The notes beneath the pieces were generated by a model. The model saw only the letters and a list, made by a program, of their open reading frames with translations. It did no database searches and was not told where the DNA came from. Made by a program: the position numbers and the translations under genes. From IMG/VR virus record IMGVR_UViG_3300017969_000006, positions 35,772 to 99,771 of that record: a stretch of DNA of 64,000 nucleotides. The stretch is one strand, 5' to 3'. Origin of the DNA: a virus. Shown in pieces: positions 25,410-50,243 of this stretch; position 1 is the stretch's first letter, and every line of letters begins with the position of its first letter.

Positions 25410-25485
25410 CCTTTATTTTGCTCGTATTAGTTGCATTACGTCAACTACGCTTCGTTTATTATATTTAGTGTCGAAGGAGCGAAAA

Positions 25486-27168
25486 ATGCCCACTAACGAA
25501 CTTACCGATCTCGAAATCAAAGCAGCGCCAGCCGGCCAGATGACCGTAAATCAGGCAAAAGGCATCGTCGAGGCTTTCGTTGCAGGAATTGGCAACAAAG
25601 ACTCTGTGGGCGATATTTGCGCCTCGGGAGCGTTCAACGCGAGCCTTAAGCGCCGCAAGCCACGCGTGGTGTGGGGACACAACTGGAATGACCCAATCGG
25701 TAAAGTGCTTGAAATCTATGAGGTTCCGGCTACCGACCCCCGCCTTCCGGAAAAGATGAAACGTGCCGGAATCGGTGGACTTTACGCAAAAGTTCAGTTC
25801 AACCTCAACAGTGAAAAAGGACGCGAAGCGTTCGCAAATGTCCAATTTTTCGGTTTAGAGCAAGAATGGTCAATCGGATACAAAACGCTCGACGCCATTT
25901 TCGATCCCGCCAAGCAAGCGAATGTTCTCAAAGAAGTCGAACTTTACGAAGTCAGCCCAGTTCTTCATGGCGCAAACCAGTTGACGGGAACAATTTCCGT
26001 AAAAGCAGCGAAGCAGAAACTGCGCGACCCCAAGGGTGGGCTGACCGCCGCTGGGCGACGTCACTTCAACCAGACCGAAGGATCGAACCTCAAGCCGGGC
26101 GTTAAAGGTCCTGCTGATACGCCGCAAAAAATGCGTCGGAAAGGCTCGTTTCTGACTCGCTTCTTCACAAACCCATCCGGGCCAATGAAAAAGCCGGACG
26201 GCAAGCCGACTCGCCTCGCACTTTCAGCGGCTGCATGGGGCGAACCAGTTCCACAAAACCGCAGTGACGCAGCCAAACTCGCCGCAAAAGGACGTCGACT
26301 CCTTGAACGCTACGAGAATGCGAAGAAAAAAGATGCTGATTGGGACGAGGAGCAAATCGACTATACGGTCTTTGAGAACTTCTTCGCCGAGGATAACCCC
26401 GAGTTCAAAACGCTCGAAACTGACGAGGGATTCTCTATTAACGATATTGAAATCGACGAGGTCGACGAAAAGGGCCACTACATGATGCGTATGGTTCCAC
26501 GCAGAGCCCCAGAAAGCCCCCGCCGTGACATTTTCGCAGAAGGCGAAGCGCAATCCCTCAATGCGGAGAAGCGAAACGCCCTTGAAATGGAAATTGCTTC
26601 ACGAACCCAGATGCCGATCAAACTCATTGAGGCGACGGAAAACTTGGCTGTCTTTGCTAAGAGTAAGCCAGATGGTACTAAGAAGTTTTACCGCCTTCCA
26701 TACCACTGGGACACTGAAACCCAGCAATACATGTTTGGCAAGCCAGAGCGCGTCGAGCCAGCGATGATGTGGCGCCCACGGAAGCCACGCGTCGTCGTCC
26801 CATCACAAATGCCGTCAATGCCGGTTGAAGTAAAGCCTCAAGGTGAAGGGCGAGGCGAGTACAACAACCCTGTAACCGTGAAGTTTGAAGAAGATGAGAA
26901 AAGCGCAATCGATCAAATGATGGAGTGGCTTGATGAATCTGAAGATGTCGAAATGAAGGAAGATGCTGTTCGCTTCATCATCGAATGCGACATGGAAGAT
27001 GCCTTCAACGTGAAATCTGCATTCGACCCAATCTTCGATTACTACAAAGTTGACGTCGAAGTTACTGAAGATGGAATTGAAGTTCTGTCAGAGGCTTCTG
27101 ACGACTTCTTGAATGCCATTGCGGTTGCTTCCAAATCGATCTTCGGGGAGACCGAAAAAAAAGTCTGA
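25486..27168 (+). CDS. HK97-type prohead protease with DUF6321-like domain and acidic tail
   Basis: GNKDSVGD, WGHNW (His), EWSIGY (Ser), ELYEVSPVLHGAN; DPKGGLTAAGR...PTRLAL...W; ATG 25486 with AAGGAG (ORF track start GTG 25468). Confidence 0.92.
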   Translation: MPTNELTDLEIKAAPAGQMTVNQAKGIVEAFVAGIGNKDSVGDICASGAFNASLKRRKPRVVWGHNWNDPIGKVLEIYEVPATDPRLPEKMKRAGIGGLYAKVQFNLNSEKGREAFANVQFFGLEQEWSIGYKTLDAIFDPAKQANVLKEVELYEVSPVLHGANQLTGTISVKAAKQKLRDPKGGLTAAGRRHFNQTEGSNLKPGVKGPADTPQKMRRKGSFLTRFFTNPSGPMKKPDGKPTRLALSAAAWGEPVPQNRSDAAKLAAKGRRLLERYENAKKKDADWDEEQIDYTVFENFFAEDNPEFKTLETDEGFSINDIEIDEVDEKGHYMMRMVPRRAPESPRRDIFAEGEAQSLNAEKRNALEMEIASRTQMPIKLIEATENLAVFAKSKPDGTKKFYRLPYHWDTETQQYMFGKPERVEPAMMWRPRKPRVVVPSQMPSMPVEVKPQGEGRGEYNNPVTVKFEEDEKSAIDQMMEWLDESEDVEMKEDAVRFIIECDMEDAFNVKSAFDPIFDYYKVDVEVTEDGIEVLSEASDDFLNAIAVASKSIFGETEKKV

Positions 27169-27194
27169 GGGGTCGCGCTCAAAGTTTCGACCCC
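27154..27194 (+). other. Putative -1 programmed frameshift signal (A AAA AAA + 6-nt spacer + GGGGTCG/CGACCCC hairpin)
   Basis: A8 at 27155-27162; stem 27169-27175 pairs with 27188-27194; the -1 frame is open into ORF 27315..30038. Confidence 0.7.
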
Positions 27195-30038
27195 AACGCT
27201 GTAGATGGTGACGAGGACGGTCTCGTTCAGGAGGGCACCCCCTTCGAGCGTCCAGCCACACCCAATGTCGCTCGCGCCCTTAGGAGCGCCACAAGTTCCG
27301 CCGGATTCGACGGGATGAAACGCGACGATATGGCGAAAATGCGTTCAGAAGAATTCAACGAGGCGGTACAGAAACAGTTCGAAAAAGCAAAGGAACTGAG
27401 GGCCGAACTGTACGAGAAATATCCAAAACTGGATGCGATGCTTGCAGCGCAGCAGATTGCGACCGTCACTTCAGTTCGCACCGGTCAGGACATCCGTGAA
27501 GAAGATGTCATGGAAGAACTTCAAGATCTGCTGAAGATCGATAGCGACGAAATCGACGACCTAGCAGACATCATCGCCAGTACACGATTCAGCCAAGACC
27601 TCCTCGAAGCGGACGAAGCGCAAATGTCAATTTCTCGCGCTCGAGATTTCGTTGAGGAAACAACTGAGGACATGGGGAACATCTCGCTCGCAATCACCGA
27701 CATGGAAGAAGACGTAGAAACCGCTCTTGACCGAATCAAGAAAGAACTTGACGGCATGGAGATTTCTACAGGGCAATTCAAAGATCTTGCTGAATCCGAT
27801 GACCGTGCCGACGCAACCCGCAGGCTACTCACTGATTTGATTGACGACCGAGAAGAACTTGAGCAACAGATTCCTCAAATGGGCTACCTTCTTGAAGATT
27901 ACGACGAGGTCAAGGAGATGCGCGATCAACTCAAAGACCTCGTAGATGAACTCGAAGAACTTTCAAGTGGACCTGTTGAATCTAGGGAGCGGGGACGAGA
28001 TCTGCTTAAGCAAGGTTTCCTGAACGCTGACTCACTAAACACGGGGTACGACGAAGACAAGTTTCGTGAGATGCTTGGAAAGTTCCGCAAGACAAAGACT
28101 TACGAGCGTGCCACCGAAGGGATGACAATCGTCCGCAAGCGCAGTATTCCAAAATCTGAACCCGTTGCTGACAGCGACGCCGCAAGGGACATTCATGGAC
28201 TTGGAAAGCGCAGCATCATCAACATCCCGGAAACGGGCGTTCAGGTCATGCTCAACGATGATCAACGTGGCGATGCTCGTCGCACCATCGCTGGTCTCAG
28301 GTCATCAACACAAAATCCTGATGCTTTCGAGAAGATGGACGAGTGGCTTTCCGGTAAATCGCCCAATATTTCGCGAGATCAGCATGAGGAGATTTTCAAC
28401 GAGTTCGCAGATGCCGCCAACCGGGATTTGGATCTTGGAGACCTCCGACACGTCCGTGACGCGATCAACTTGGCGGCAATGTCTGAAGATGGAAAATGGA
28501 AAACGCCAAAGGCTGAGGGTGGATTCGATGGAAGACCAAAACCCGCTGGTCTGACTAAGCGCCAAAGAGCAGATTTGTTGGAGTGGGGGCAAAACGACGC
28601 AGATGACATGCTGCGTAGACGCTTCGTTGGTCTGAAAGAAGATGATGTGTCCCCCAAGGGGTGGATGATGCTCCGCAACGATTTTGGCGGTGGCATGCGT
28701 TCAGCAACTGGCGGTGGAAGCATCAATGAAACGCGTGACACCGGCAAGCGAGCACAGCGAGGTAGGCCGGTTGGCGCTGGTGATGAGAAGAAATTCAAGG
28801 GCAAACCGTTCTCGGAAGTAAAACCTGACAATTGGGATCAGTTGACTGCCGATGAGAGGTTTGACGAACTTCTTACGAATTTGCACCCTTCTAAGACCGG
28901 TCTTCGAGAAGTTGACTTCAACCGTTTGAGAAAAGAACTGGTGCTGGAGTCTCTCCGCTCAGATCAGGAAAGCGAGCGTGCTCGACGTCGGGCTCAGCGT
29001 CGGGAAGCGCTGGCGAACGTCAGGGTAAGCAAACCAACTGAGCGCCCTGCTGCTCGACCTGCTCCAGTTGCTACAACCGCTGAACAAGCCAAGAAGCAGC
29101 GTCAGCAGGAAGTCACGAAAATCGGCAACCGAGTTGCCCGTATTTCGTCAAATATTGACAAGCAGTTCGAGAGAGACGAAGAACGTGGTTTGGACCCCAA
29201 CGATGAGTCCCATAGAGATATTTGGGCGTCACTTACCGACATTTTGGAAGATAGCGATGAGTTAACCCTGTCTCAAGCAGAATCCATCGCTGCAACCCTT
29301 GACGACTACCTAGAAGAAGCATCCGGAGCAGATCTTACTGCAACCGAATCAAACAGTGTCCAAAATGCTCAGGTTCTTCGCGCAGATATGGGCGATCTGA
29401 TTGACAGATATAGGCTTGACCCGAATATCAGCAAGGGTGACAGTTCAGCGGCGGTCCGAATTGGCGGCGAAGGTGAAGAAGATGTCGCCACCACCGGCCG
29501 CTCCGCCGCACGATTCCTTTCCGAAGGCGGAATGCGATCATTTACCTCATACAAGCCTTCCCCAACCGTCCAAGAATACGCAGAAGCACGCAGAAGCCAA
29601 GGGCTACGCAGTCAACAGGCTGGACGAACCGTAATCAATGAGGAAGCGACATTCTTCAAGGCAATCGAAGATTCTCTGGCAAAAGAAATCAGAGAAGCAC
29701 GTAACGCCAACGATTCACGAACGGTTAAGGGGCTTGAACTACTTCAGCGAATTATGCGTCGTCAAGATTCAGGCAAAGTCTCGGATCGTCGAACCAACGC
29801 CGGCGCACTTTGGGTGACGGCAGACGAAGCCGATGAGATTTTGGACGCGATGATGTTTGCCCTTGACCGACAAATGGAAACAGGCGGATCTAGGGTGGAC
29901 CTGTATGCACAATTTGTCGAAATTATCTCGGCTGCCGCAATGGGGACATTCATCAGCAAGACGACCTCGGAGGTTTCGTCACGAACCCAAGCACGAACGA
30001 ACAGTCAAGGACGACAAGTAAATATCCCGAATCAGTAG
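27162..30038 (+). CDS. Tagged cargo protein 1 (frameshift extension of the protease; ORF track 27315..30038)
   Basis: -1 frame reads SLRGRAQSFDPNAVDGDEDGLVQEGTPFERPATPNVARALRSATSSAGFDG, then continues into MKRDD...; largely helical, five [GA][LM]RS motifs. Confidence 0.75.
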   Translation, partial: SLRGRAQSFDPNAVDGDEDGLVQEGTPFERPATPNVARALRSATSSAGFDGMKRDDMAKMRSEEFNEAVQKQFEKAKELRAELYEKYPKLDAMLAAQQIATVTSVRTGQDIREEDVMEELQDLLKIDSDEIDDLADIIASTRFSQDLLEADEAQMSISRARDFVEETTEDMGNISLAITDMEEDVETALDRIKKELDGMEISTGQFKDLAESDDRADATRRLLTDLIDDREELEQQIPQMGYLLEDYDEVKEMRDQLKDLVDELEELSSGPVESRERGRDLLKQGFLNADSLNTGYDEDKFREMLGKFRKTKTYERATEGMTIVRKRSIPKSEPVADSDAARDIHGLGKRSIINIPETGVQVMLNDDQRGDARRTIAGLRSSTQNPDAFEKMDEWLSGKSPNISRDQHEEIFNEFADAANRDLDLGDLRHVRDAINLAAMSEDGKWKTPKAEGGFDGRPKPAGLTKRQRADLLEWGQNDADDMLRRRFVGLKEDDVSPKGWMMLRNDFGGGMRSATGGGSINETRDTGKRAQRGRPVGAGDEKKFKGKPFSEVKPDNWDQLTADERFDELLTNLHPSKTGLREVDFNRLRKELVLESLRSDQESERARRRAQRREALANVRVSKPTERPAARPAPVATTAEQAKKQRQQEVTKIGNRVARISSNIDKQFERDEERGLDPNDESHRDIWASLTDILEDSDELTLSQAESIAATLDDYLEEASGADLTATESNSVQNAQVLRADMGDLIDRYRLDPNISKGDSSAAVRIGGEGEEDVATTGRSAARFLSEGGMRSFTSYKPSPTVQEYAEARRSQGLRSQQAGRTVINEEATFFKAIEDSLAKEIREARNANDSRTVKGLELLQRIMRRQDSGKVSDRRTNAGALWVTADEADEILDAMMFALDRQMETGGSRVDLYAQFVEIISAAAMGTFISKTTSEVSSRTQARTNSQGRQVNIPNQ

Positions 30039-30127
30039 AACGTCAATAAGTACTCCACAGAATAAGCCAATTTTGGGGTACAATTTGACAAACGGTCCTC
30101 ACGAAAAAACAGTTTAAATACCTCTGC

Positions 30128-31690
30128 ATGGTCACAGGCAAACAGGCTATGATGCCATGTAGTGGTTGTAGCATCTCTAAGAGATGTTTACTGAATAACA
30201 TGCAGTACAAGGAGCCTACCAACATGGAACAAGAAGAGAAAGCAGTCATCAAGATCGATGCCGAGGGCAAGATGATGAACTGCGCCAAAGGCCATGGTGG
30301 AGACGACTGCGGCTACAAAACTGGCGCGAAGATGTGCGGCAAGTGTGGAGCCATGGCAGTTGAAGTAAAAGATGACGATGCCGACTCCGAAGATCTCGAG
30401 GCCAAGTCCTACGATGAAATCGACGAAGACGACGAAATTATCGAAAAGGCACTCGCCGCCGTTGCTACCGATGAAGACGAGGACGAGGACGAGGAAGAGT
30501 CCGACGAGGAATCGGATGATGACGCCGAGATGAAGGCTGTTGGCAACGCTCCACAGATGGATGAAGAAGAAGACGAAGAAGACGAAGACGAAGAAGAGGA
30601 CGACGTTGCCCCCGCAGAGGCCGCCCCAGCCGAAGAGGCCACTCCTGCCGATGATGAGCCCACCCCTGATTCTGATGCCGAGATGGAAGAAGAAGAAGAC
30701 GAAGACGAGGAAGAGGACGACGAAGAGGAAAAAGGCTGGATGGGTGACGCTCGCAAGCGCCGCCTCCAGACCATGGGGCGCAAATCTGCCGACCTTGGTC
30801 AGACCGGCTTCCTCTGCGCCGTCGAGCGCAAGGTGTACCCGGGAAGCGCATCCGTCTGTGACGACTGCCCGGGTGGATGTATCGCCGAAAAAGGCATGCC
30901 CGGTCTCATCGAAATCGAAGGCAAGGCCGAAGCAGAGTTCAACGGTACCGTCATTGATTCCGGATACTCGCAGGACAGCGACATCTACGTCATTGACCTT
31001 GAAGTTAAGGACGGACACGCCATCGAAGTGTTCATGGAGGGATCCACTGGCGAAACCCTCGGCTTCCATCGTCTCGACGACTCTGTGTTTGAGCAGAAAT
31101 CGCTGACCGCTGACACCGAACTAATCGATTTCAACGTCGCTGCCGAAATTGCCGTCAAATCAATCGAAGGGGTTGAAGGCATCGTTACCGCTGTGGAGCC
31201 TGACACCTTCGAAGGCTTTGACGTTTACGCAGTAGAGGTCGACGGTATTGATGGCAAGTCATATGACGTATTCGTCGCTCTAGACGGAGAAGTGCTTGGT
31301 TTCGACACTTACGAACCGGACGAGGCGGAAGAGATTGAAGCCGAAGCGGCAGAAATCGCCCTCAAGCGTGCGTTTAATGAATCCCAGCGAGAGGAAATGG
31401 CCAAAGAAGGTCTTGCGCTTCCTGATGGTTCTTTCCCAATTTCCAATGTTGACGATCTGCGCAACGCAATCATGGCCCATGGCCGCGCCGTCGACAAGGA
31501 GAAAGCCAAGAAGCACATCATTAAGCGCGCCCGAGAAATGGGTAAGGAAGAGATGATTCCTGCTGCTTGGACATCCGCCAAGAAAGAAGACGCCGAGGTG
31601 AACGACATCAACGACGCAAGTTTCATGCGTTCGCTGGTCGAGTTTGAAATGCTCATGAACGAGGACGACAGCAACGACGGGAACTCCTGA
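30128..31690 (+). CDS. Acidic head-associated protein: Cys clusters, PepSY-like repeats, C-terminal DUF6582-like domain
   Basis: Long D/E tracts; AAEIAVKSIEG..VTAVE...YAVEV...YDVFVALDGEVL; QREEMAKEGLALPDGSFPISNVDDLRNAI...HIIKRA; alternative ATG 30224 has AAGGAG. Confidence 0.7.
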   Translation: MVTGKQAMMPCSGCSISKRCLLNNMQYKEPTNMEQEEKAVIKIDAEGKMMNCAKGHGGDDCGYKTGAKMCGKCGAMAVEVKDDDADSEDLEAKSYDEIDEDDEIIEKALAAVATDEDEDEDEEESDEESDDDAEMKAVGNAPQMDEEEDEEDEDEEEDDVAPAEAAPAEEATPADDEPTPDSDAEMEEEEDEDEEEDDEEEKGWMGDARKRRLQTMGRKSADLGQTGFLCAVERKVYPGSASVCDDCPGGCIAEKGMPGLIEIEGKAEAEFNGTVIDSGYSQDSDIYVIDLEVKDGHAIEVFMEGSTGETLGFHRLDDSVFEQKSLTADTELIDFNVAAEIAVKSIEGVEGIVTAVEPDTFEGFDVYAVEVDGIDGKSYDVFVALDGEVLGFDTYEPDEAEEIEAEAAEIALKRAFNESQREEMAKEGLALPDGSFPISNVDDLRNAIMAHGRAVDKEKAKKHIIKRAREMGKEEMIPAAWTSAKKEDAEVNDINDASFMRSLVEFEMLMNEDDSNDGNS

Positions 31691-31713
31691 AGGCTGGGAA
31701 AGAGTGGCCCACT

Positions 31714-34700
31714 ATGGCCAACATCCGGGCCGAACGAGTAATACTTTCTGATCGCGTCAACACCTATCGACGTGATTACGAAACCATTGGTGCTCTCTTT
31801 CGGATAAAGAGTGCGGTACTTGCTTCCCAAGAGAGCCTTGACCCAAACATCTCTGTAAAAGCGTTAAATCAGGATCTTCCCAAAAAAGATAAAAAAGATT
31901 CTGAGAAGCGCACTTCTGGTACGGGAGTTGAAGAACAACTCCCCGAACTTCGCTATGCGCCTAACGGCAAACGTGGCCGTGGCGACGTACTCAAACTGCA
32001 TGTAACCCCACGCGACCTCACAACTGGCAACGAACCAAACTTTGGTTGGATTCCTGCTCCTGAGAAAAAATCCGAAGAGGAAACACGCAAACAAATGCGT
32101 GAACTGTTGGATTGGAAGAAGCGCCGACCCAAAGTTCGCGTCAGGAGTTTTCGTGCTGACCCAAGAACAGGTCAACGAGTAGAGGATTCCGGTGTCGATG
32201 TCGAAGTAAAAGGACTCGGCAGAAAACTGAACCAGATTGTTCCCGGAGGGAATTTGTCCTCACGTGCGGCTGGGGCAGTTGGAGTACTAACTGACGCAAA
32301 CGGGAAATTCCGATGCCCGCCCGGAACCCCGGCAGCCAACCAGTTCACCGATGAATTTGGTACAAACTGTTTCAAACCAGCACTCTCCTCGCGTCGACTC
32401 ATTGGAGCGATGCGTCGGTGGTTCGACAAATATGTTGAACTCGGAGAACAAATCCAACTGCTTGAAAGCATGGGCATATACGGTGTCGGGCCAGACGACC
32501 TAACCCCTCAATACAGGCAAAACATCCGAAACATGGTTCGGGCTGCTGGAAGTGTTGCGCCAAAAGAACGCGTCCAAGAAGTTCAATCCCGAATGGACAC
32601 CGCAATTGATGCCCTCCAAACACGACTTGGAACGACTCGCGACACCACAGACAATGCCGACATGTGGACCGCGCTGGCAACGCTGGCCGCCGATGAATGG
32701 CAAGACCTTGACTTCTCAGGGATTTTTTCCGGACCGGAAGGCTGGGGTTCGTGGAACAAAAACATGCTTGCCGACCCAAAGGGTCGCACTCCTCAAGCAG
32801 CAGCAGATCACACTGCCGACGTTCGTAGCCAATACATCTCAATGTTTGACAACTGGGTGTCGGACGGCCCAATGCGCCAAAGGTACCGAGATGGAGACCC
32901 CGAAGCCAGAGCCCTCATTGACGAAATGGTTACCCGCCATCTGGCAGCAGAGCGTGGCTTCTTAAAGGCGATTCTTCAGGAGTATCAAGAATCCCCGGAA
33001 ATCATGCGTCAAGTAAAGACGCTAGGCCGAACGCAAATCCGTGATGGCGAGGCGTTTGATGACTATTGGCGAGTAGATGGAGAATGCAGCCCGGCAGGTT
33101 TCCACCCCAGAGATGGGTTCGCTCTGAATATTGACTTCAACGCGGCAGCAGTGGCTCTGAAACCAGCAATCCAAAACGGACTAGCAAATTACACTTCTGA
33201 CGGCCGCATCCTCTTATTCGATATCGACCCCAACGATGTGTCTCGCTCATTCACTTCGGAAGCCGAACAGTGGGCCGAAATCGGAAACCTGATGCAGAAC
33301 ACCGTCGATCTTGAACGGTGGCGAAATGTTTACGCTCAAGACCTTTCTACCGCACGCCACGGCTCAATCGAAGCAAAGGGTGTGCATATCGCAAAACATG
33401 AACTTGGTCACGCCCGCCAGTACCAGTTCATTAAAAATGCCGTCTTGGACACCCACGCCAAAACAGGCTCCACCTACTTAGTCAACTCAACTTCAGGTCA
33501 AATTGAACGGCTCGACGTTTCTCCCGATCAGTGGACTAACCAGCAATGGGTTGATGTGGTGACGAGTCAGGTTCAACGTCTTATCCCAGAAAAGTACCTC
33601 GCCGATGGCTTCCCACCGACGTCGCTTGAGACGTTCGAAGGAACAATGCTTCACATCATGGCGGGAAGGTATTACCAAGACGAAGTTCAAAATTTCTTCA
33701 ACTTGAATGATGATGCCAAACGAGGACAGTCGGCATTGATGATGCTCGAAGGCATGACAGAATTGCGCGCGCTTCGAGATATGGGTGTCCTCATGGATCC
33801 AGAACTCGACCGGCTCGTGTCATGGATGGACGACGTTGACCCCAGAACACCGGAACGCCCTGATCCGCAAGGAGTTATCTGGCCGCCGCCGACAAGTTCA
33901 GCAATGCAAGTGTTCCAGCCGGATCCCAATGGAACGTGGGACACAATTAGCCGCACCCCGATTGAAGATCCAAACCCGTTCATTCCTGACCTTGGCGGAA
34001 AACAGGAACATATCGATGCCATCAATTCACGCATCTCAAGTCTCAATCGCAGTCTTCCCGACGCCGAAAGAGACCTTTTTGATCCAAGAAGCGAAGTCGT
34101 CGAAATCCAGAACGGCAATGACGTTGTCGAACAACTGAGAAGTGGCAAAACCGCTCTCGACATTGAAAACCTGACGGTTAAGAAACAGCAAATCATTGAC
34201 CGCGAAGTACTTGCTGAGGACATCGCAGCAACAGGAGAAATCGACGATGTTGGGGATCTCGAGGTCGGCGATGCCATCCGATTCAAAGGATTCAAAACAC
34301 TTGATCGCCGCATGGATGCTGATCAAGAACAAGACCTTTCGGCTGACGAAGGAAAACGGAAAGTCAACTTTGTTCTACCTAAGGGAACAAAAGGCATCGA
34401 AAAACAAAACCCGGCGAACAACGAGCCCGATCAGGTTGAGATTCCCGGCGGAGAATACGAAGTCCGTTCTGTTAACCCAGATGGAACTGTCACGCTAGTT
34501 CCCCGCAGCCAAGATGATGCCGACACCGTTGCTCGTCGCCTCATCGACAGTCTTGATGGAAGTTCCGACATAGACGACGTTCGCGATGCTGTAAGAACAG
34601 TTCAGAAACGGGCGCAGAAGTACGTCCAGAAAAAGGAAAAGATTCGTCGAGCCACGCGATCCAGCGACCCGGCCACCGCACAACGTATGGAGCGGCGCAA

Positions 34701-38742: not shown

Positions 38743-38959
38743 CAAACGAGTCACCACCGGAGATGACGGCATCCGTTTTCAGCCTAGCCAGACGTACTTG
38801 AAGTACATGGAAACCAGCGCTGTTCGTGAACTGCTTGATAAAGACCCCGACGTTGAACCGTACCTCCAGCAGATCTTTACTGCGCTGCCACAAGTCAGTG
38901 AAGTAATCGATCTTTACAAAAACACCTACATCATGGCGCTGCGTGAGGTTGAAGAATGA
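38735..38959 (+). CDS. Small protein coupled to the 2342-aa gene (candidate immunity/partner)
   Basis: GTG 38735 with GGAG upstream, overlapping the upstream stop; 74 aa. Confidence 0.55.
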   Translation: MDSKRVTTGDDGIRFQPSQTYLKYMETSAVRELLDKDPDVEPYLQQIFTALPQVSEVIDLYKNTYIMALREVEE

Positions 38960-41445: not shown

Positions 41446-41780
41446 ATCAGAAAGAATGGAACAAAAAACTCGAGAAAACTACCGGTTTTCCAATCAGTGA
41501 AATGTTCACTGCGCTATCCAGTGATCAACTGATTGGGAAGATTCGGGAGGCTGAAGATGGAAAGGATCCATTCGCTGACAAAAGAATGGAAAAATTTGAG
41601 CAATTTCTTGATGTCCATTCAAATAAGCGCGTAAACCCAAACAATCCTTTTAGGGACGATCGAGATCGTGAAATTTGGTCAACGATCGAGTTCCGGACAG
41701 TTCTCTTGCCTCCAAAAGAACGAAATAAGCGGATTCCAACCTATTTCGGACCGAATCGAGTACAACTAGAAGTTTCCTAG
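41442..41780 (+). CDS. Small protein coupled to the 829-aa gene (candidate immunity/partner)
   Basis: ATGA overlap, 112 aa. Confidence 0.6.
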   Translation: MNQKEWNKKLEKTTGFPISEMFTALSSDQLIGKIREAEDGKDPFADKRMEKFEQFLDVHSNKRVNPNNPFRDDRDREIWSTIEFRTVLLPPKERNKRIPTYFGPNRVQLEVS

Positions 41781-41813
41781 CATCATCATTATCTATTCTA
41801 AACTGGATACACC

Positions 41814-42449
41814 ATGGATGAAATCGAAGTCAAAGGCCCACAAGATGTAATCCTCGACCTTCCACAGGAACGAGTCACGGCGATTACTGGCGGCAGGGGA
41901 CCGCGTCGCGGCAACCTTGAGAGGTTGTTGCGCTATTGGCGTCCCATCATGAAAAAGCCGGGTGGATTCAGAAGGTGTCGTGTAATTCTTGCGGACCACC
42001 CAGAACTTTACCCACTCGAACGAATCTGTGCTTGGCTGCACCATGAGACAACCGGTCTTTGGCCCAATGAGGGATGTCACCATCCCGGAATGAAAAACTG
42101 TAGAGGAAAACTCAAGAAGCGGAACTGGTCTGATGCCGACTGGAGCAAGAGGATGGCTCGACGCTTCAAAAAGAACAAGAAATCTATCTTTGATCATCAA
42201 GTTGATGACATGTTCTACGGTGATTTTATTGAACGTAAAGAACTTGAAACAGATTTCGACTATAATCAAGTAGTTACCGAAACAGATTTCAAGCATGCGA
42301 TGTCCGTTTTGTCAGACTTCATGGACATGGAACCTGATTTCGTCTCGTATATCAGAGATTACGAAAACTGGGAAATCGTCGGAGACGACGAAAACGGCGA
42401 TGAAATTTCGGCAACATTCGTGAAAACCGAAGATTGCGGATGTGACTGA
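41814..42449 (+). CDS. Head-associated protein with Cys/His domain
   Basis: GNLERLLRYW...PGGFRRC...ICAWLHHETTGLWP; begins MDEIEVKG. Confidence 0.65.
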   Translation: MDEIEVKGPQDVILDLPQERVTAITGGRGPRRGNLERLLRYWRPIMKKPGGFRRCRVILADHPELYPLERICAWLHHETTGLWPNEGCHHPGMKNCRGKLKKRNWSDADWSKRMARRFKKNKKSIFDHQVDDMFYGDFIERKELETDFDYNQVVTETDFKHAMSVLSDFMDMEPDFVSYIRDYENWEIVGDDENGDEISATFVKTEDCGCD

Positions 42450-44404
42450 TGGCCACTTCATACATTTACGAAAAAGAAGTTGATTGTGAAGCGTGTCCAA
42501 GTGTTCGCGTGAAAAGAACGATCATCGCCAAACTCGAACAGAAAGAAAACGTTCGTTACCTCCGGCAAACTCGCGCAAATCGTGAAGAACTCGTGCAATT
42601 TAAAGCACTTTCTAAACGAAACGGGAATATTCGCCAGTATGACGTCAAACGAGTTGGCGCAATCGGGTCAAGTAGCCGTCTGGGGCAAGCAGCCCAAGCA
42701 ATCGGAACCATTGCCACCCCCGGAAATATTTCCCCTTACCGCAGCCCAATCAGGTCAGGAATTGCTCGTGCCCTGACTCCCGGCAAACCCGGTGGTATGC
42801 GTGGTGTACGTCGCCGGGGACGAACCTCTAGGTGTCCAGAAGGATTCCAGTACGGTGGTCGTTTTACTGACAATGAATTCTCGACATGTGGGCAACAGTT
42901 GTTCGATGTTCCATCTCCCCTTGGCGCAACAATTCGCGCAATTCGTGAGCAGCAAAGAGCCGCCGCTCGAGGACCAGCCCAACCGCGAACTGCCGCTACG
43001 CCAATTGCCTCACAAGGAACAGTGAATCGTGACCGTGCCGTTCGTGCGGCACAAATTCCGCGCGTGTCAGCCACCACGAAGAAAACCGATCGCGATAAGA
43101 GCACCGCTGAAGTAATCAAAACGATGGGCAAGCCAGACATCAACGCCACTCGCCTCGTCCGACGTGACGGATATGTTCTCGAGCCAGTCGTGACACCCCG
43201 AGTTCTTCGAACCATCCCAGACAACCGAGACATGGTTGATGCAACATTTATTCTGACTGCCAAGAATCGCGCAGACCTTGGCGACCAAGAACTTGGGCTT
43301 CTTTCAAATACAGGCGTAACCAACGTCACGTATGTTTTTCAAGACGGATCTTACGTTCAGATTCGAAAAGTTCGTTCATTGACCCGTGGTGAGCGACGCA
43401 AGTTGGGTCGCACCGTGAACGCGGCGATGAAAGTTGATAACGAAAGTGACCCTCTTGCACGCCTGAAATACGTTTCAGATGAGACCGGTGATGGCATCGA
43501 TCTCGTTGAGAGCCTACGAGGCGGTCGCACGATTCAAAAAATCCTTTCCGGGAAAGGCAAAGTTTCGAGATCGAAAGATTCAGAAACTGTCGATCCGCTT
43601 GGAGACGCCGCAAAAACAGTTCGAGACGGAGGAGACATCTCCTCTATCCGCCCAACAATCCTGCAAGAAGCGATTGGTAAAACGAATCTCTTCAAAAAGA
43701 CAGGTACTGACAAGTACAAGGCTGCCGATGGCAGGGTTTACACACTGCGCACTTCGGGCAAGTCAGGCGAACACATTACGCAAGCCATGTCATCCGCAGT
43801 CCAAGACCACCTCGGACTCAACGGTGTTGATATCGCATTTGTCGGTAAGGGATCATCGAAGCGCAAGTACTTGTCCATGACCCCGGAATCCGAGATCGTC
43901 GACGGTGCGCTTTCCAAAGAGAAGTCATTCAATGACCTCGATGTGGACGACGTGGCAAAACTTTTCGTATCTGACATGGTTATGGATATAGAAAGTCGCG
44001 CCAGCAACACGGTTGCGATCTTCGACAAGGGGGATGAGTCGTCGCTCATTGCGACATTTGCCCAAAGTGAACTCGTGGATCTTTCGGATGCCAAAATTCG
44101 TGAACGTACCCAGAAAAAGATTCGCGACATGAAAGCATTGCAACCCGACAGCATTTACAGTAAATACTATAAGAGTTTGAAGGCTGAACAGCGCCGACAA
44201 ATGCAAGAAGAGATCGACAAACTCATTGCGAAAGCACGCGAATTTAACTTCACCAAATTCCGCGACAAACTCTACGCAGATGGAGAACTCTCCTCAGCGG
44301 AGAAGACACACTTGAACATTATTGCTAAAATTATTAAGACACGTATTGATGTACTTACCGACAGTAGGGAAGTTTTGATGCGTGTTCTCGGAGGTCAGAA
44401 GTGA
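42449..44404 (+). CDS. 651-aa cargo-like protein with RCPxG..FTD..C motif and degenerate HipA/PI3K-like C-terminus
   Basis: RCPEGFQYGGRFTDNEFSTC; DGRVYTLR...AVQDHLGL...VAKLFVSDMVMDIESRASN. Confidence 0.6.
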   Translation: MATSYIYEKEVDCEACPSVRVKRTIIAKLEQKENVRYLRQTRANREELVQFKALSKRNGNIRQYDVKRVGAIGSSSRLGQAAQAIGTIATPGNISPYRSPIRSGIARALTPGKPGGMRGVRRRGRTSRCPEGFQYGGRFTDNEFSTCGQQLFDVPSPLGATIRAIREQQRAAARGPAQPRTAATPIASQGTVNRDRAVRAAQIPRVSATTKKTDRDKSTAEVIKTMGKPDINATRLVRRDGYVLEPVVTPRVLRTIPDNRDMVDATFILTAKNRADLGDQELGLLSNTGVTNVTYVFQDGSYVQIRKVRSLTRGERRKLGRTVNAAMKVDNESDPLARLKYVSDETGDGIDLVESLRGGRTIQKILSGKGKVSRSKDSETVDPLGDAAKTVRDGGDISSIRPTILQEAIGKTNLFKKTGTDKYKAADGRVYTLRTSGKSGEHITQAMSSAVQDHLGLNGVDIAFVGKGSSKRKYLSMTPESEIVDGALSKEKSFNDLDVDDVAKLFVSDMVMDIESRASNTVAIFDKGDESSLIATFAQSELVDLSDAKIRERTQKKIRDMKALQPDSIYSKYYKSLKAEQRRQMQEEIDKLIAKAREFNFTKFRDKLYADGELSSAEKTHLNIIAKIIKTRIDVLTDSREVLMRVLGGQK

Positions 44405-47400
44405 AACAGTACGCTTTAGTAAAGGACATGGTTAACGGCTCGTCTTACTATGGCGTTGTCATCCGTGAAAATGGGCTTACCGAATGCAAAGGTGTTTCAG
44501 GTGTAGGCGAAAAGTGGGCGGAATCTTACAACAACGCCGAAACTAAGTCCCTTGACGATGGTCTTCCCTATGGTGTGAAAATCGGAGAATTCCATGCGTT
44601 GACTCAAAGCGAGGAAATCCTTGTCGAACACATGCTTGACGGCAACACTGTTCGTTTCCCAGACAGAACTCAACTGAAGCAACTGTCTTTCCACAAAACA
44701 GACGCTAATTCAAGCCTTCCTGCCGTTTCAAACACGCCGCTTTCAGCATTTTTGATGGATGACCTGCAAACCGCAGTTGACTACAAGATTCGCGCTTTCC
44801 TCTCCGACTCTGCGAGAGCGTCAGTGATGCTGAAGTCACGTCTTGAAAGATACGGCATCAGCGACACAACTGTCGGCTTCAAGTCTGCAAGCAATAACAG
44901 TTTCCTGAATGAAGACATGTCCAGTGTGGCTCGTGGACATGGCAATCTTCGACGTGCGCTGTTGGATATCAGAGACGCAAAATCAACCTTCCTAGAAAAT
45001 CATCCGGGATATCAGGTTGGAATCGAGGAAAAAGCAATCGGGCGTAGCCTCGGTCGAGGTGCGCGCATTGGCAGACGTGCGGCTCGCGCCTTCAAGCCAT
45101 ACGACCCGAACGCAATCGATGGCGACATGGACGGAATTGTTCAAGAAGGAACACCTTGGGAACGTCCAGCAGTCAGAGTTGGTGGACGTGGCGTTCGCTT
45201 AACCCCAACGCAGCAGCGGGCAAGAAGCGAAATTGCTCCAGATGTCGGGATGCGTAGCCGGACGGGTGATGGAGAAAGCATTCAGGACAGGCTTACAGCG
45301 GCGCGTAACAGTCGACAGCAAAAACTTGCCGATCGCATGCGTGAAATGGGTTTCGACGATGACAATCAAAAAGAAATCAATGACTGGCTGAGAACCTTTA
45401 ACCCGGAAGATTTCGAATATACCGACATTGATGATCTCGAGATTGAAGGTCTGACCTCGCGCCGTGGCTCATCCAGCCCTACCGGCAGCATTTTTGGTCA
45501 GCGCCGTTACTCAAGCGAGGATTGGATCGAAGGCCAACTCGATGAGGGGCCGCTTGCTGGTTCTTTCTTTGAACTTCGAACCGCACGCGATTACACCGAA
45601 AGCAACTTTAATGATCCGGGTGAAACGCTCGGTGGTAATGATGAGTTGACTGTTTACACGCCTGATGGTGTCGTTCTCAGTTTCGAAAACGAAACATGGG
45701 AAGACTCTTTGGACCTTATCAATGTCCGCGCACCGGGCGGTGATGGCCTTCGGTCAAGAAGTCGACGCGGGGATGACGAGGACTACCCTCGTATCGACCC
45801 CGATCTCATCAACAGGTTGCGAAATGAACGATTTGTTCCCGAGACAAGTCGTTCTGGTCGTGCACGTCAAAACCGCATCATTAACACCCCGAACGCTGAT
45901 GGTGGTCCACCACGTCGTGCAGTCCGGGAGCGCTCTGGCCGAGTTGTCCCAGAACCACCGGCACGTGATCGGAGCGGACTGCGCAGCAGGACCGGTGACA
46001 CCGCCAACAGAAATGCCGAATTGACCGGTGTAGGAACAACCGTCCCCAAAGCCATGAAGGCAAACAGGAAGTTCTTCCAAACACTTGCTGCCAACGGATT
46101 CGTTTGGGACGACAAGCCTGACACCAGTGGCAGAGTTAGGATTTTCCTACCCGACCGCATGTCCGACTGGACACTTGACCAGCCCGACAGCGTCCGTAAT
46201 CAGTGGGGCAAATTCAAACCAGCCCGCGAAAATCAGGCAGCCGGCTTCATTCACGTACACCCCGGCAAGGACACGCCACAACGTCCTGAAAACATGGCGA
46301 AACGTTTCCTGCGCACCATTTTTGGCGACACCGCATGGGACGACATGGAAGCAAACGCCAAGAAACCCGGCGATAAGCGCGGCACTGGTCGAATCGGAGT
46401 AATTCCTTCAACTAGCACCGGCGCGACTGGATTGCGTTCCGCAACGTCTCGTGCTCGCACTCGTACTGCCTCAACGGAAAGAGTAGCAACGCCCACCACA
46501 ACCGGACGAAGCCTCCGCTCGGGCCAACTGCGCAAACTTGGAAAGCCCGGTGTCGCAAGAGGTGAAAGCGACGGAAAAATCTGGGAACAATTGGATGACA
46601 ACCAACGCGATTTGTTCAAGCAATTTGCACAGGCGCGTGAAGTTCAGTTGATGCGGAATCTCACTCAGGATGCGAGAATGCGAAAGTTCCGCAACAAGAT
46701 GATAGATGATGGCGATTTCGACGAAATCGACGAGGACGGCAACGTTGTGCGGAATTACAACAAACCGCTTGCTCGAAACATCATCCCATTGGCGCAACGA
46801 GAAATTGACGATCTGCTTCGCGATGAAAAAATCACGGAGGAAACCCACGTAAAGTGGCAGAAAACTTTGGACGACATCAAGACGTTGCGCAACATGAAGG
46901 AAAGCGACAACTACGAAGCGCTGGAGCACCTGCATCCGGCAAGTCGTGCCAAGATCATCAAGGACGCTCGGGGTGAAGATTCAAGCATTCCGGGTGTTCG
47001 TGCACTGAAGGCTGATGGTCCGTCAACGTTCTTCGGTGATCAAGCCCGTACAGCCAGTGGTCGTAGCGCCGGTAAGAATCGGAAACCGAAAAGGAAGCGG
47101 CCTTTCGCTGACCGCATTATCACACCGAATGTTGAACGACTACAGCGTCGGGCGGCTCGTCGTCAACGAGCACAAGCGATTCGTCGGGGAGGCCTTGTTC
47201 GCGGTCAAGAGGCTGACGTTTCTGCAACGCAAAATGCTCGACGCAAACTGGCTCGTCAACTTCGTCGAGCACGACGCAGATTTAAAGGAGAACGCGACGA
47301 AAGAGCGATCCGTAAAATCTTTGACGAAAAGAAGAAAAATCACCCATTGGCCCGTACAAAAGAAGGCGCTCCAGAAGTCAATGACAAGTACGTTGATTAC

Positions 47401-48246
47401 CTTGCCTTCGTCGGATCAAATATTGATAAACGTCAAAAAGGTGAACTCTCATCAGACGTTCGCGACAGCGTCCTTCGAGACCTTTGGCAAAACGGAGGAT
47501 TCAACCAACGCCCCGAACTCATTTCTGCGGACGAGATGCAGGCCCTCAGCGATGCGGGTTGGCAGGTTCTACACCGAGGAGTTGACAGACTGGGAACTCA
47601 AGCACAAGCAAACACAGATTCGTACAAGGAAGACTTGGACCGTTTCACGCCCGGCGAAACTAATCTACGAGCACATGGCGTTGGCGAATACTGGGCTGCT
47701 CCGGGGAGTGGGCACTGGGGAGGTTACGGTTCTGGCATGCTTGCCTTCATTGACCCAGAAGGCAAAAGGATCCAGAGGAATAAACTCAAGGGATTATCAG
47801 ATGAATCTTGGCCAGCAATGAAGGAAATCCAAGATCTCATCGATGAACTAGGTGATGGAGTTGCACAAGGTGAAGACCCTGCAAACTTCGTTGATCAAGT
47901 AATGGAACGACTCCGCTCCAATGGTCTCGAAGGTCTCCTCGAAAAAGATAATGAAATCATCCAAGTGGCTCGCCAATTGCTCGACAGGTACAAGGGCATG
48001 ACCCCGAATGACACAAAGCGTGAAAATACGTGGAATGCCATTCAATATATGCTCGGCCAATCGAGGCAGGCGCAATGGTCAGGCGGAGAGGGATATTGGG
48101 CTCCAATCCTCGGCTACGACTACGTCACCTCAAACGAGGGCGTGTTCCTTGTTCACAACCGAGGCAGTGTTGCTGTGCTTGACGTCGCCGAACCGCTCAG
48201 CGGCGGAGCAGCAAAGACAATTGTAGATGGCCTCAATGAAGGGTAA
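44401..48246 (+). CDS. Tagged cargo protein 3 (1281 aa), multi-module with C-terminal ART-like domain
   Basis: EEKAIGR, YDPNAIDGDMDGIVQEGTPWERPA, four G[LM]RS motifs; C-terminal GFNQRP...LHRGV...HGVGEYWA...ILGYD...VHNRG. Confidence 0.7.
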   Translation: MKQYALVKDMVNGSSYYGVVIRENGLTECKGVSGVGEKWAESYNNAETKSLDDGLPYGVKIGEFHALTQSEEILVEHMLDGNTVRFPDRTQLKQLSFHKTDANSSLPAVSNTPLSAFLMDDLQTAVDYKIRAFLSDSARASVMLKSRLERYGISDTTVGFKSASNNSFLNEDMSSVARGHGNLRRALLDIRDAKSTFLENHPGYQVGIEEKAIGRSLGRGARIGRRAARAFKPYDPNAIDGDMDGIVQEGTPWERPAVRVGGRGVRLTPTQQRARSEIAPDVGMRSRTGDGESIQDRLTAARNSRQQKLADRMREMGFDDDNQKEINDWLRTFNPEDFEYTDIDDLEIEGLTSRRGSSSPTGSIFGQRRYSSEDWIEGQLDEGPLAGSFFELRTARDYTESNFNDPGETLGGNDELTVYTPDGVVLSFENETWEDSLDLINVRAPGGDGLRSRSRRGDDEDYPRIDPDLINRLRNERFVPETSRSGRARQNRIINTPNADGGPPRRAVRERSGRVVPEPPARDRSGLRSRTGDTANRNAELTGVGTTVPKAMKANRKFFQTLAANGFVWDDKPDTSGRVRIFLPDRMSDWTLDQPDSVRNQWGKFKPARENQAAGFIHVHPGKDTPQRPENMAKRFLRTIFGDTAWDDMEANAKKPGDKRGTGRIGVIPSTSTGATGLRSATSRARTRTASTERVATPTTTGRSLRSGQLRKLGKPGVARGESDGKIWEQLDDNQRDLFKQFAQAREVQLMRNLTQDARMRKFRNKMIDDGDFDEIDEDGNVVRNYNKPLARNIIPLAQREIDDLLRDEKITEETHVKWQKTLDDIKTLRNMKESDNYEALEHLHPASRAKIIKDARGEDSSIPGVRALKADGPSTFFGDQARTASGRSAGKNRKPKRKRPFADRIITPNVERLQRRAARRQRAQAIRRGGLVRGQEADVSATQNARRKLARQLRRARRRFKGERDERAIRKIFDEKKKNHPLARTKEGAPEVNDKYVDYLAFVGSNIDKRQKGELSSDVRDSVLRDLWQNGGFNQRPELISADEMQALSDAGWQVLHRGVDRLGTQAQANTDSYKEDLDRFTPGETNLRAHGVGEYWAAPGSGHWGGYGSGMLAFIDPEGKRIQRNKLKGLSDESWPAMKEIQDLIDELGDGVAQGEDPANFVDQVMERLRSNGLEGLLEKDNEIIQVARQLLDRYKGMTPNDTKRENTWNAIQYMLGQSRQAQWSGGEGYWAPILGYDYVTSNEGVFLVHNRGSVAVLDVAEPLSGGAAKTIVDGLNEG

Positions 48247-48255
48247 ACTATTGAC

Positions 48256-48639
48256 ATGAGTGATACAACTAACGAATGGGGCGAAGATCTGCAAGAGGTA
48301 GAGCGTCGACAGCAATTCACCGACCGGTTTAACGAGTTGATGGACTTGACCGACTACCCGCCATTTTCAATCAATCTTGAAAAACACAACGAGTATCGCG
48401 AAGAAGTCATGGCCTACAGCGTGAAAATCTCTGAACAAATTCGTGAAAGCGACGCAATCGAAGATCGACCATTCTCAACACTTATGGCGAAATGGGAAGA
48501 TGACCTTGACGAGGCCAAACTCTACAAACAGCGTTATGGTAGGGATTTTGTTGGCGCCCAGAAAGCGGCCGCAAAGAATGACGGCATCTCCATGCGTGAC
48601 GTAAAGCCCATCGGACCACCATCAGCATATAAAGACTGA
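48256..48639 (+). CDS. Small protein after the 1281-aa gene (candidate immunity/partner)
   Basis: 127 aa; ATG lies 6 nt after its own TAAACT box. Confidence 0.6.
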   Translation: MSDTTNEWGEDLQEVERRQQFTDRFNELMDLTDYPPFSINLEKHNEYREEVMAYSVKISEQIRESDAIEDRPFSTLMAKWEDDLDEAKLYKQRYGRDFVGAQKAAAKNDGISMRDVKPIGPPSAYKD

Positions 48640-50243
48640 TGAATAAAGGGGCCGCCGGGAAAGCGCGAGCACTCCGACGCGCTAAAGAATTGGGATGCAC
48701 TGGTGCACACAAACATCCTGACGGCGGCTGGATGGCATGCTCCACCCATGAAGAGTACGAGCGTTTAGAAGCCGAAGAAGAGTCCGAGCAAGAAGAAAAA
48801 TCCGTTCTTTCTCGTGTTCGTGAATTCCAAAGTGTTCGCGAACGAAAAGGCAAACGCCGCAAAAAGAAAAATAAAAAGAACTGGGAAAAACTCGGTGAAC
48901 GTGGCGTTGTTTCAATCGACACAATCACTGGCGGCGGGCTCGTTTCGGGCGCTGTCGCTGGAAAAGTTGCATCAGCAATCCCCCGTGACGGAGAAGAAGA
49001 TGTTTTTACCGACATCAACTCAGCACGTCGAAGGGCGCGACAACTGGGATGTATCGGAGTTGCACGACGTCGTTCCACTGGCGGTCAAGTCGTATGGACT
49101 CCGTGTTCAAACATCACCGACTATGCGCGACGCACAGGAAGCACCGCCCTTGGCCGTCGATACATAGAACGAATGCGACGGCAAGAAGCGCGTCGAATCG
49201 TTGAAGAAGAACGCAAGCGCGGTCGCTACAAGCGTAAAATTTCCCTATTTGAAGAACTTCACGGGAAAGCGCTCGGCAGGAAAATCCGTCAGGCTGCTGC
49301 TGTTTTCGATGCCAATGCCACGGATGGTGACAACGACGGGATGGTGCAAGATGGCACCGCTTTTGCTAGACCAGCAATCCCCAAGGGTGTCGGTAAGTCG
49401 AAAACATGGAAAGACCTCATTGAGATGGAGCCCGGTTGGATGTCCGAGGCACCAAAAAACATTCAAAGAGCAGCGTCGCAGGAAGCGAGAGAAAAACACC
49501 GGAAATTACGTGTTTCTGGGCTTCGTTCGCAGCAAACCGGGTCCGGTGGTCGTGCTCAAGTGAGTCGAATCATGCAACAAGTCATGCCAGAGCATCGTGG
49601 AAAAGAGGATAGAACCCTCTATTTCATTGGCGGAACAACTGGTGCGGGGAAGTCAACTCTCACCCGAAATGACAGATTTGGGATACCGGGGCCTGATGCT
49701 GCTGCACATATTGACCCTGATGAGATTAAGGCCGGTTTGGTTGGCTGGGATAATGGCCGTGGTGCTGGTGCCGTTCACGATTCTTCACGACGAGTTACCG
49801 ATCACGCCATGAAAGCAGCGGCTGAGGAAAAAACCGATATGGTCGTTCAGGGTACTGGCAAGAGGACTGAGCACCTTCAAATGGCTCGTCAAAATGGATA
49901 TGCAACTGTTGGGCACTTTGTTCATATTCCCGGTGACGAAGCAGATCGCCGGATTGTTCAGCGAAATGCTGACAATAGGCAGAATGGTGGAGCGATAATC
50001 CCGGAATGGTTTGGGAGCCAGATTGGTCGTGAACTACAGCCGATTGTTCCTCGTCAAATTACATCCGGATTATTTGATGAATTCTTCTTGTGGGATAACA
50101 GCGGAGACACACCCGTTCTGATTGCTAAGCGCACCAAAGACGGAAATTACAACATCAATGATATTGATGCTTTCAATGATTTCTTTAGTCCGACCGGAGC
50201 CGAGTACGTCAAGAACTACTGGGATAGTAAGTCAAGTAGTTAA
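48639..50243 (+). CDS. Tagged cargo protein 4: two DUF3721-like repeats plus zeta-toxin-like P-loop kinase
   Basis: AKELGCTGAH...WMAC and ARQLGCIG...WTPC; HGKALGR, FDANATDGDNDGMVQDGTAF, GLRSQQ; GGTTGAGKST, HIDPDEIK, VVQGT, LWDNS. Confidence 0.8.
   Translation: MNKGAAGKARALRRAKELGCTGAHKHPDGGWMACSTHEEYERLEAEEESEQEEKSVLSRVREFQSVRERKGKRRKKKNKKNWEKLGERGVVSIDTITGGGLVSGAVAGKVASAIPRDGEEDVFTDINSARRRARQLGCIGVARRRSTGGQVVWTPCSNITDYARRTGSTALGRRYIERMRRQEARRIVEEERKRGRYKRKISLFEELHGKALGRKIRQAAAVFDANATDGDNDGMVQDGTAFARPAIPKGVGKSKTWKDLIEMEPGWMSEAPKNIQRAASQEAREKHRKLRVSGLRSQQTGSGGRAQVSRIMQQVMPEHRGKEDRTLYFIGGTTGAGKSTLTRNDRFGIPGPDAAAHIDPDEIKAGLVGWDNGRGAGAVHDSSRRVTDHAMKAAAEEKTDMVVQGTGKRTEHLQMARQNGYATVGHFVHIPGDEADRRIVQRNADNRQNGGAIIPEWFGSQIGRELQPIVPRQITSGLFDEFFLWDNSGDTPVLIAKRTKDGNYNINDIDAFNDFFSPTGAEYVKNYWDSKSSS

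Follow-up and report, generated by a model that had tools for sequence, protein, structure and literature searches.

What does a short peptide do that is shared by otherwise unrelated large proteins encoded in the head module of a phage? The question is raised by a 64,000-nucleotide stretch of viral DNA, here called the window, which covers positions 35,772 to 99,771 of the 99,771-base IMG/VR virus record IMGVR_UViG_3300017969_000006 (estimated completeness 67%); the sequencing runs that hold the window sequence belong to a salt-marsh campaign. Four proteins of the window carry a tag made up of a basic lysine motif (part 1, the Lys site), an acidic box with a DxDxDG core and, further downstream, an [LM]RS motif (part 3). 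The observation is confirmed and is highly non-random. We propose that the tag may be a portable cut-and-address cassette with which a large clade of uncultured phages marks its capsid-internal cargo, a reading for which we find the case about evenly balanced.

Four copies of one tag in a phage head module

A regular-expression scan of the window in six frames found the acidic box at all four coordinates given in an earlier note, which had been made from the sequence alone: the patterns D.[ND]A.D[GA]D.DG and D[GA]D.DG.VQ[ED]GT have exactly four matches, at 27189, 39421, 45103 and 49308, all on the plus strand. The pattern K[AS][LI]R?GR matches upstream of each box, at 27159, 39340, 45031 and 49266, and [LM]RS follows downstream, at 27279, 39559, 45250 and 49521, so that the order K-[AS]-[LI]-(R)GR, box, [LM]RS holds for every copy, as the note had claimed. 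The chance expectation for a 12-residue pattern of this kind in 64 kb is effectively zero, and a profile of the four copies searched against the whole 99,771-base record returned the same four matches only. A stray K-A-L-G-R at 19686 on the minus strand, outside the ORFs examined and with no box nearby, probably occurs by chance. The copies and their carriers are as follows.

27159-27176, plus strand, −1 frame: copy 1, part 1 (K-S-L-R-G-R)
27186-27257, plus strand, −1 frame: copy 1, acidic box
27276-27293, plus strand: copy 1, part 3 (A-L-R-S-A-T)
38956-41445, plus strand: 829-aa carrier of copy 2 (KALGR 39340-39354, box 39418-39486, ALRSQQ 39556-39573)
44401-48246, plus strand: 1281-aa carrier of copy 3 (KAIGR 45031-45045, box 45100-45171, GMRS 45247-45258)
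48639-50243, plus strand: 534-aa carrier of copy 4 (KALGR 49266-49280, box 49305-49376, GLRS 49518-49529)

All four copies are internal to their proteins (aa 129-575). Residues identical between copies are encoded by identical codons in 3/13 to 9/13 cases; this codon divergence, also claimed in the earlier note, indicates that conservation acts at the peptide level. An all-against-all BLASTP of the large proteins aligned the tag regions only, in agreement with the description of the carriers as unrelated, while their description as giant is overstated for the 534-aa and 829-aa proteins. Named domains among the window carriers are limited to the protease fusion described below and to the 534-aa carrier, in which Pfam identifies a DUF3721 N-terminus and, after the GLRS, a Zeta_toxin/AAA_33 kinase domain. 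The 1281-aa carrier has further GLRS sites at 45745, 45976 and 46429.

The carriers lie in a head-morphogenesis module that occupies 23-52 kb of the window on the plus strand, in the order portal, S78 prohead protease, about 23 kb of large ORFs and an HK97-like major capsid gene. Its conserved genes are the following.

23390-25375, plus strand: portal protein gene at the start of the module (Pfam Phage_portal PF04860, E 3e-48; PHROG portal families)
25468-27168, plus strand: prohead protease ORF (S78, PF04586, aa 29-176; DUF6321, PF19846, aa 186-257)
50395-51711, plus strand: HK97-like major capsid protein (phmmer E 8e-57 to HK97 gp5, 1ohg)

Beyond the window, the four-copy profile found relatives in at least 379 IMG/VR loci and, when run on 1.84 billion representative proteins, in 839 clusters (50% identity), whereas a search of 185,579 prokaryote species, one genome each, gave six loci, all in metagenome-assembled genomes. 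The box is nearly phage-only, and the concern voiced in the earlier note that it might be common in unrelated non-virion proteins was not borne out. The tag has no family in Pfam, PHROGs or the PDB sequences; one PDB match, to designed ankyrin repeats, was rejected as a chance match. A tblastn search of two tag copies against 50,697 GenBank phage records at E up to 10 returned nothing, which is weak evidence given that the filter probably masks the Asp/Gly core. Our search of the literature on protease-cargo fusions found no paper describing an acidic-box tag, and nothing was found on DUF6321 or DUF3721.

Of 80 related loci, 47 have a gene for portal, protease or capsid protein within the fetched stretch and on the same strand; where flanks were available, the portal, protease and capsid genes adjoining the carriers are 53-91% identical to those of the window and again on the same strand. 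Near-complete relatives (132-145 kb) encode an HK97-type capsid protein and an S78 prohead protease and contain one to five significant boxes each, mostly clustered within 20-35 kb. The commonest carrier is the prohead protease itself (S78 plus DUF6321), fused in frame to 750-2600 more residues with the cassette at the junction, giving PF04586-PF19846 fusions of 1300-3300 aa. Other carrier domains are Zeta_toxin with DUF3721, NUDIX, RNase_T, ADPrib_exo_Tox, DUF3626, PI3_PI4-kinase-like and HTH, and multi-domain carriers among the relatives combine Zeta_toxin with ADPrib_exo_Tox, DUF3626 with RNase_T, or S78 with cargo. The box is always upstream of the cargo domains: it lies at most 40 residues from the protein start in 46 of 221 cases (these N-terminal boxes begin 15-35 residues from the start) and is internal in 154, and some proteins have two to four boxes, one at the head of every new segment. 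This context, with carriers between the portal/protease and capsid genes and with the protease itself tagged in many relatives, supports the reading of the tagged proteins as capsid cargo.

Two observations stand beside these architectures. Three small proteins of 172-184 aa (P0169, P0182 and P0143) have two N-terminal boxes each; a PG_binding_1 peptidoglycan-binding domain scored in P0169 and P0143, and P0182 looks similar. In several relatives (L007, L008, L011-L013, L016, L017, L039, L046 and L068) a free small ORF that shares 58-83% identity with the DUF6321 part of the protease is found downstream of the capsid gene, at distances of a few hundred bases up to about 2 kb, which indicates that DUF6321 exists both fused to the protease and free.

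The box and its flanking motifs

Across the family, 122 of 161 distinct instances of the box have the motif K-[AGS]-[LI]-G-[RQ] at a distance of 10-29 aa upstream; in these the Lys is followed by [AGS] in 93%, [LI] in 96% and G in 73%. In 183 non-redundant carriers, 94 of 114 Lys motifs are adjacent to a box, and the other 20 compare with a chance expectation of 22; we therefore rejected the idea of a general cut site scattered through the cargo, the motif being at chance level outside the neighbourhood of the box. A Lys site is present at 84 of 154 internal boxes versus 4 of 46 true N-terminal ones, which is how a boundary signal should behave. Cleavage of the HK97 capsid protein falls between K103 and S104 (PMC10275583), and mature HK97 gp5 starts S-L-G-S. 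Part 1 of the tag has the residues of this maturation site at P1, P1', P2' and P3' (K↓S-L-G), a match in sequence only, and an S78 protease is present in the module. Part 1 is probably a protease site. The window capsid protein has a scaffold-like N-terminal part that ends near E-F-K-S-L-Q-G-G-R (50716-50742), and the motif EFK[ST]L.GG is kept in most of the 14 close relatives aligned, with A at that position in two.

The Lys site also occurs without the acidic box, at one further place in the window.

32209-32370, plus strand: K-G-L-G-R followed by a Cys box (RCPPG...FTD...C), which replaces the acidic box, in a 2342-aa protein

The Cys module, [RK]CP-x-G...F[TS]D...C, has 22 distinct instances in the window and the fetched relatives, and its pairing with the K-site recurs in several relatives of the 2342-aa type (G2342). 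A second site of the module in the window, at 42830-42889, is in a 651-aa protein. Since the same K-[AGS]-L-G-R precedes a different, two-cysteine module, the Lys site is separable from the acidic box.

These data bear on the possibility that the cassette is a processing junction and nothing else, in which the box would be an exosite placing the protease on the Lys site and the cargo would enter via upstream domains (the protease, DUF3721 and others), either by fusion or by binding. The tightness of the coupling between Lys site and box (94/114) fits this proposal, as do the prevalence of the protease-cargo fusion among architectures and the prediction of the region as a disordered linker. However, 42 of the 46 N-terminal boxes come without a Lys site and have nothing to cut off, the upstream domains of the window carriers share no similarity, and the pairing of the Lys site with another downstream module means that the box is not required for it. 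We regard a pure junction as rather unlikely.

Part 3, which the earlier note took to be a fixed member of an ordered three-part tag, turned out to be something more general. In the wider family the order of the three parts is a real tendency, but part 3 is only loosely coupled to the box. The 183 carriers contain 375 G-[LMF]-[RAS]-S motifs where 37 would be expected, about a tenfold enrichment; the reversed and permuted controls gave 35 and 54. There are 5 occurrences in the 300 aa before the boxes, 52 in the first 50 aa after them and then 9-18 per 50 residues; put per box, the motif follows within 50 aa in 26% and within 100 aa in 37%, compared with 3% for the 100 aa upstream. Up to about 13 copies are found in one protein. 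The window has eleven strict motifs, all in cargo parts, and G[LMF][RAS]S is absent from its protease, portal and capsid proteins. Lineages differ in the third residue of the motif, which reads G[LM]RS in the window phage and its close relatives and GLAS, GLSS, GFAS or GFRS elsewhere. Part 3 is therefore the first of many punctuation sites that run through the cargo, not a fixed member of the tag. Some protease fusions, those of L047 and P0204 among them, have in their cargo part, instead of the linker rich in G-phi-x-S, a run of pentapeptide-repeat-like G-A-[DN]-L-[TS] units.

The box itself has the 26-residue consensus [FY]DP[ND]A-x-D[GA]DxDG-x-VQ[ED]GT-x-[FW]-x-RPA over 161 distinct instances, with many positions above 90%. 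Within its loop the D, D, D and G at positions 0, 2, 4 and 5 are present in 100%, partly by construction of the search pattern; V or I occupies position 7 in 99% and E or D position 9 in 99%, and at the start of the box Asp is conserved in 91% and Pro in 86%. Between Lys site and box lies an Arg-rich stretch of 10-25 residues, for which a helix is predicted at low confidence. An AlphaFold model of the tag alone, from a 51-row alignment, had a mean pLDDT of 59 and gave an Arg-rich helix followed by coil, with the box as coil at pLDDT 50-72. In a model covering residues 1-693 of the protease fusion from a relative (pLDDT 53), the tag was in a disordered stretch between better-predicted domains, and the Lys site was not docked into the protease. 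Such placement of the tag in a low-confidence linker fits a linear motif that depends on a partner or a metal.

The earlier note had read DxDxDG as a calcium-binding loop motif. The sequence pattern is there, and the tag profile cross-matches eight genuine Excalibur calcium-binding repeats of one cellular protein via the DGDxDG-VV-x-E loop; that the box binds calcium is a reasonable inference from this resemblance. The likeness to Excalibur (PF05901) extends to D-x-D-x-D-G, a hydrophobic residue at 8 and Glu/Asp at 10, as in DRDGDGxxCE. Yet the box lacks the cysteines and the remaining domain, which sets it outside that family, and the Pfam models of Excalibur, EF-hand and dockerin gave no match to seven tags at E up to 10.

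A loop of this type might act in or on the host after release, as extracellular Excalibur- or dockerin-type loops do, binding calcium or the envelope without any role in the capsid. The Excalibur cross-match and the small two-box proteins with a peptidoglycan-binding domain would be accounted for in this way. The failure of all three calcium-loop models to score the box argues the other way, and so does its presence on enzymes that act in the cytoplasm (kinase, NUDIX, exonuclease, ADP-ribosyltransferase (ART)) and on the head protease, as well as its practical absence from cellular genomes; we consider such a host module improbable. The conserved Asp (91%) and Pro (86%) directly before the calcium-type loop call to mind another activity, that of FrpC, which undergoes calcium-dependent autocleavage at an Asp-Pro bond. 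The box could on this basis be a calcium-triggered element that breaks its own Asp-Pro bond, but the self-processing module of FrpC has about 177 residues against 26 in the box, the model of the box has no fold of its own, no family model matches, and 14% of boxes, including window copy 4 (D-A), have no Pro. Membership in the FrpC type was rejected for wrong size, and self-cleavage of any such kind seems to us very improbable indeed.

A predicted −1 frameshift at the protease junction

Copy 1 is located in the −1 frame, past the stop of the protease but ahead of any start codon in ORF 27315-30038, a position from which it could be expressed only through a −1 shift. The sequence at this point contains the following elements.

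27156-27162, plus strand: slippery heptamer A_AAA_AAA within an A8 run, recognized from the sequence
27169-27194, plus strand: 7-bp GC stem-loop (RNA fold −14.4 kcal/mol, z −1.78)
27162-30038, plus strand: 958-aa cargo extension in the −1 frame (G[LM]RS at 28293, 28692, 29529 and 29601)

With the stem-loop 6 nt downstream of the heptamer and the −1 frame open to 30038, the site has the elements of a programmed −1 frameshift, namely an X_XXY_YYZ heptamer, a spacer of 5-9 nt, a downstream structure and an open −1 frame. The A8 run is identical and without indel in the per-run assemblies of two DNA and two RNA runs, all four of which come from one salt-marsh campaign and may include the source sample; its reproduction in separate assemblies shows that the run is not an assembly slip. 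The zero-frame protease product ends ...EKKV, one residue past the part-1 Lys, and is without the tag.

The close relatives solve the same junction differently, with an in-frame A7 at the corresponding codons and a protease-cargo fusion in a single frame. In five close relatives (L044, L051, L067, L070 and L072) the fusion reads through TCA AAA AAA GC[AG] CTT AGG. The codons CTT AGG are the same in all of them, while those around the pair differ, and slipping by −1 on TCA AAA AAA would lead to a stop two codons further on. The A-run is missing here from more distant relatives. Both arrangements can give the protease in a free form and in fusion with the cargo, but the default product is the opposite one: in the window phage the fusion would be the shifted product, and in the relatives the truncated protease would be. 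As either the zero-frame end or the stop after a slip falls close to the Lys, we infer that this Lys marks the functional end of the protease. If used in this manner, the swapped A-run arrangement would exemplify recoding that sets the stoichiometry of a head enzyme and its passenger.

Directly 3' of the protease extension, at 30128-31690, lies the gene of a 520-aa protein whose N-terminus is Cys-rich and which also has a very long Asp/Glu-rich tract. It has no family match, no box and no punctuation motif, and could be a scaffold-like or a DNA-mimic protein.

Proposed loading, cutting and delivery of cargo

The cut-and-address reading may be set out as follows. The Arg-rich basic helix and the acidic box would dock the precursor inside the assembling prohead, a plausible partner being the scaffold-like N-terminal part of the capsid protein, whose first 112 residues are net acidic (D/E 22 versus K/R 12). 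The co-packaged protease would then cut after the Lys, freeing the upstream part, the protease included, and leaving a cargo piece headed by the box. The punctuation sites would be cut next, by the same protease or by a peptidase borne by the cargo, and the polyproteins would in this way be split into separate enzymes that are ejected with the DNA. The earlier note had proposed a docking or packaging signal bracketed by two cleavage sites. This proposal is partly supported, by the head-module context, the cassette on the protease of many relatives, the HK97-type site, the enriched linker motif and the DxDxDG core; part 3 as a fixed element is not, and the tag cannot be the sole route into the capsid, given that the default protease lacks it.

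Several points weigh against the cut-and-address reading. The default protease, having no tag, must enter the prohead untagged or else paired with tagged copies. The Lys site is unlike the punctuation motif, and one protease specificity may not explain both. In the capsid protein, the candidate Ser lies 56 residues from the conserved R-x-x-V-R-D-L, compared with 26 in HK97, which leaves the HK97-equivalent position uncertain. No consistent co-variation was seen between the N-terminal region of the capsid protein and the punctuation motif; a candidate co-variation was rejected because G-[LF]-R-E is present in that region in window-type relatives and not in other G[LM]RS lineages. Cultured relatives that carry the tag were found neither by the GenBank tblastn nor among the cultured phages nearest by capsid protein (about 50% identity), the actinobacterial myoviruses Gordonia phage Gray and Brevibacterium phage Cantare, which are without the acidic box; in these two phages, too, non-structural genes sit between portal and protease. 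A small number of boxes lie outside head modules, for instance that of a 77-aa ORF in a complete 137-kb relative (G003:C1:131378-131473), on the opposite strand and about 40 kb from the head-module cluster. Finally, each predicted cleavage product would keep its own box, which a role after cleavage fits at least equally well.

Such a role would be that of an N-terminal handle, produced by the cut, that tethers the cargo to the packaged DNA or the portal and leads its exit through the tail, with loading achieved by other means; the basic helix would bind DNA and the acidic loop would act through divalent cations. This would explain why several proteins with two boxes look like polyproteins in which one box heads each segment, and why the distance of N-terminal boxes from the start (15-35 residues) is close to the spacing between Lys site and box (10-29 residues); the tagless default protease, moreover, means that at least one head protein must enter without the tag. 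On the other side, we know of no ejection leader of the box type in any phage, and many carriers have only the tag before the enzyme domain, so that another loading signal would have to hide in unrelated sequences. We think the handle unlikely, though it is the likeliest of the alternatives.

The combination of a cargo tag with processing by a prohead protease is a known kind of system. What is new here is the sequence module, the HK97-type site within the tag, the calcium-type loop, the presence of the tag on the protease and the predicted recoding at copy 1. In T4, a capsid-targeting sequence (CTS) on IPI-III and Alt is removed by the prohead protease gp21, and in P1 a packaging signal of 30 residues lies at DarB's N-terminus (PMC9024508). 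The cassette resembles these in being a short shared peptide on unrelated proteins, here predicted to be head-internal, coupled to a putative prohead-protease site and portable in principle. It differs from them in having no sequence similarity to either, in being paired with an S78/HK97-type protease rather than with T4 gp21, and in being mostly internal, much longer (45-110 aa), endowed with a calcium-type loop and present also on the protease.

In HK97 the relationship is one of homology as regards the capsid protein and the protease, and part 1 matches the maturation site. Duda, Oh and Hendrix reportedly described in 2013 a capsid-targeting C-terminal tail of the HK97 protease gp4, and the cassette is likewise C-terminal to the protease. 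HK97, however, has neither large cargo nor an acidic box, whereas here the protease is fused to 750-2600 cargo residues or separated from them by a frameshift. Encapsulin cargo-loading peptides are C-terminal, about 10-20 residues long, rich in Gly, Ser and Leu, and uncleaved. They too are short peptides that address enzymes to the interior of an HK97-fold shell, but the tag described here is acidic, sits at the N-terminus or internally and is coupled to a putative protease site, and membership among encapsulin-type loading peptides was rejected on account of its location, which is not C-terminal.

The cargo itself is of the kind known as polyvalent proteins, which combine disparate effector domains in one polypeptide, are encoded beside head genes and whose predicted fate is packaging, cutting and delivery along with the DNA (Iyer et al. 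2017, PMC5512222). The domains of that survey include zeta-toxin kinases and ARTs (PMC5512222), and the domain repertoire of our carriers is likewise of the effector type, some relatives having at least two unrelated effector or enzymatic domains in one polypeptide next to head genes. The survey places assemblin-like peptidases at C-termini only and names MuF as the usual phage head anchor (PMC5512222), whereas in the carriers the protease has an N-terminal position and MuF was not detected; a word search of the survey gave no mention of calcium or of a packaging signal.

A broader joint reading, which we put forward tentatively and hold to be well short of probable, is that the cassette amounts to a readable "address plus cut-here" code for an entire clade of environmental phages of about 140 kb, with the calcium-type loop as a cation switch. 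Any box-bearing protein would then be capsid cargo, and the mature injected enzymes would be those delimited by the Lys site together with the lineage-specific G-phi-x-S sites. The loop would hold the cargo on the capsid interior or on the DNA at high divalent-cation activity and would release it in the host cytoplasm.

The proteins that phages inject with their DNA are known for a handful of model phages and are unpredictable for uncultured ones. If the tag marks capsid cargo, the question of which proteins are injected becomes testable from sequence alone. The cassette would also provide a model of S78 protease specificity beyond HK97 (Lys↓Ser/Ala-Leu-Gly plus G-phi-x-S) and, should the reading hold, a candidate tag with which foreign proteins could be brought into HK97-type shells. 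For hundreds of uncultured phages the injected proteome would then be readable from sequence.

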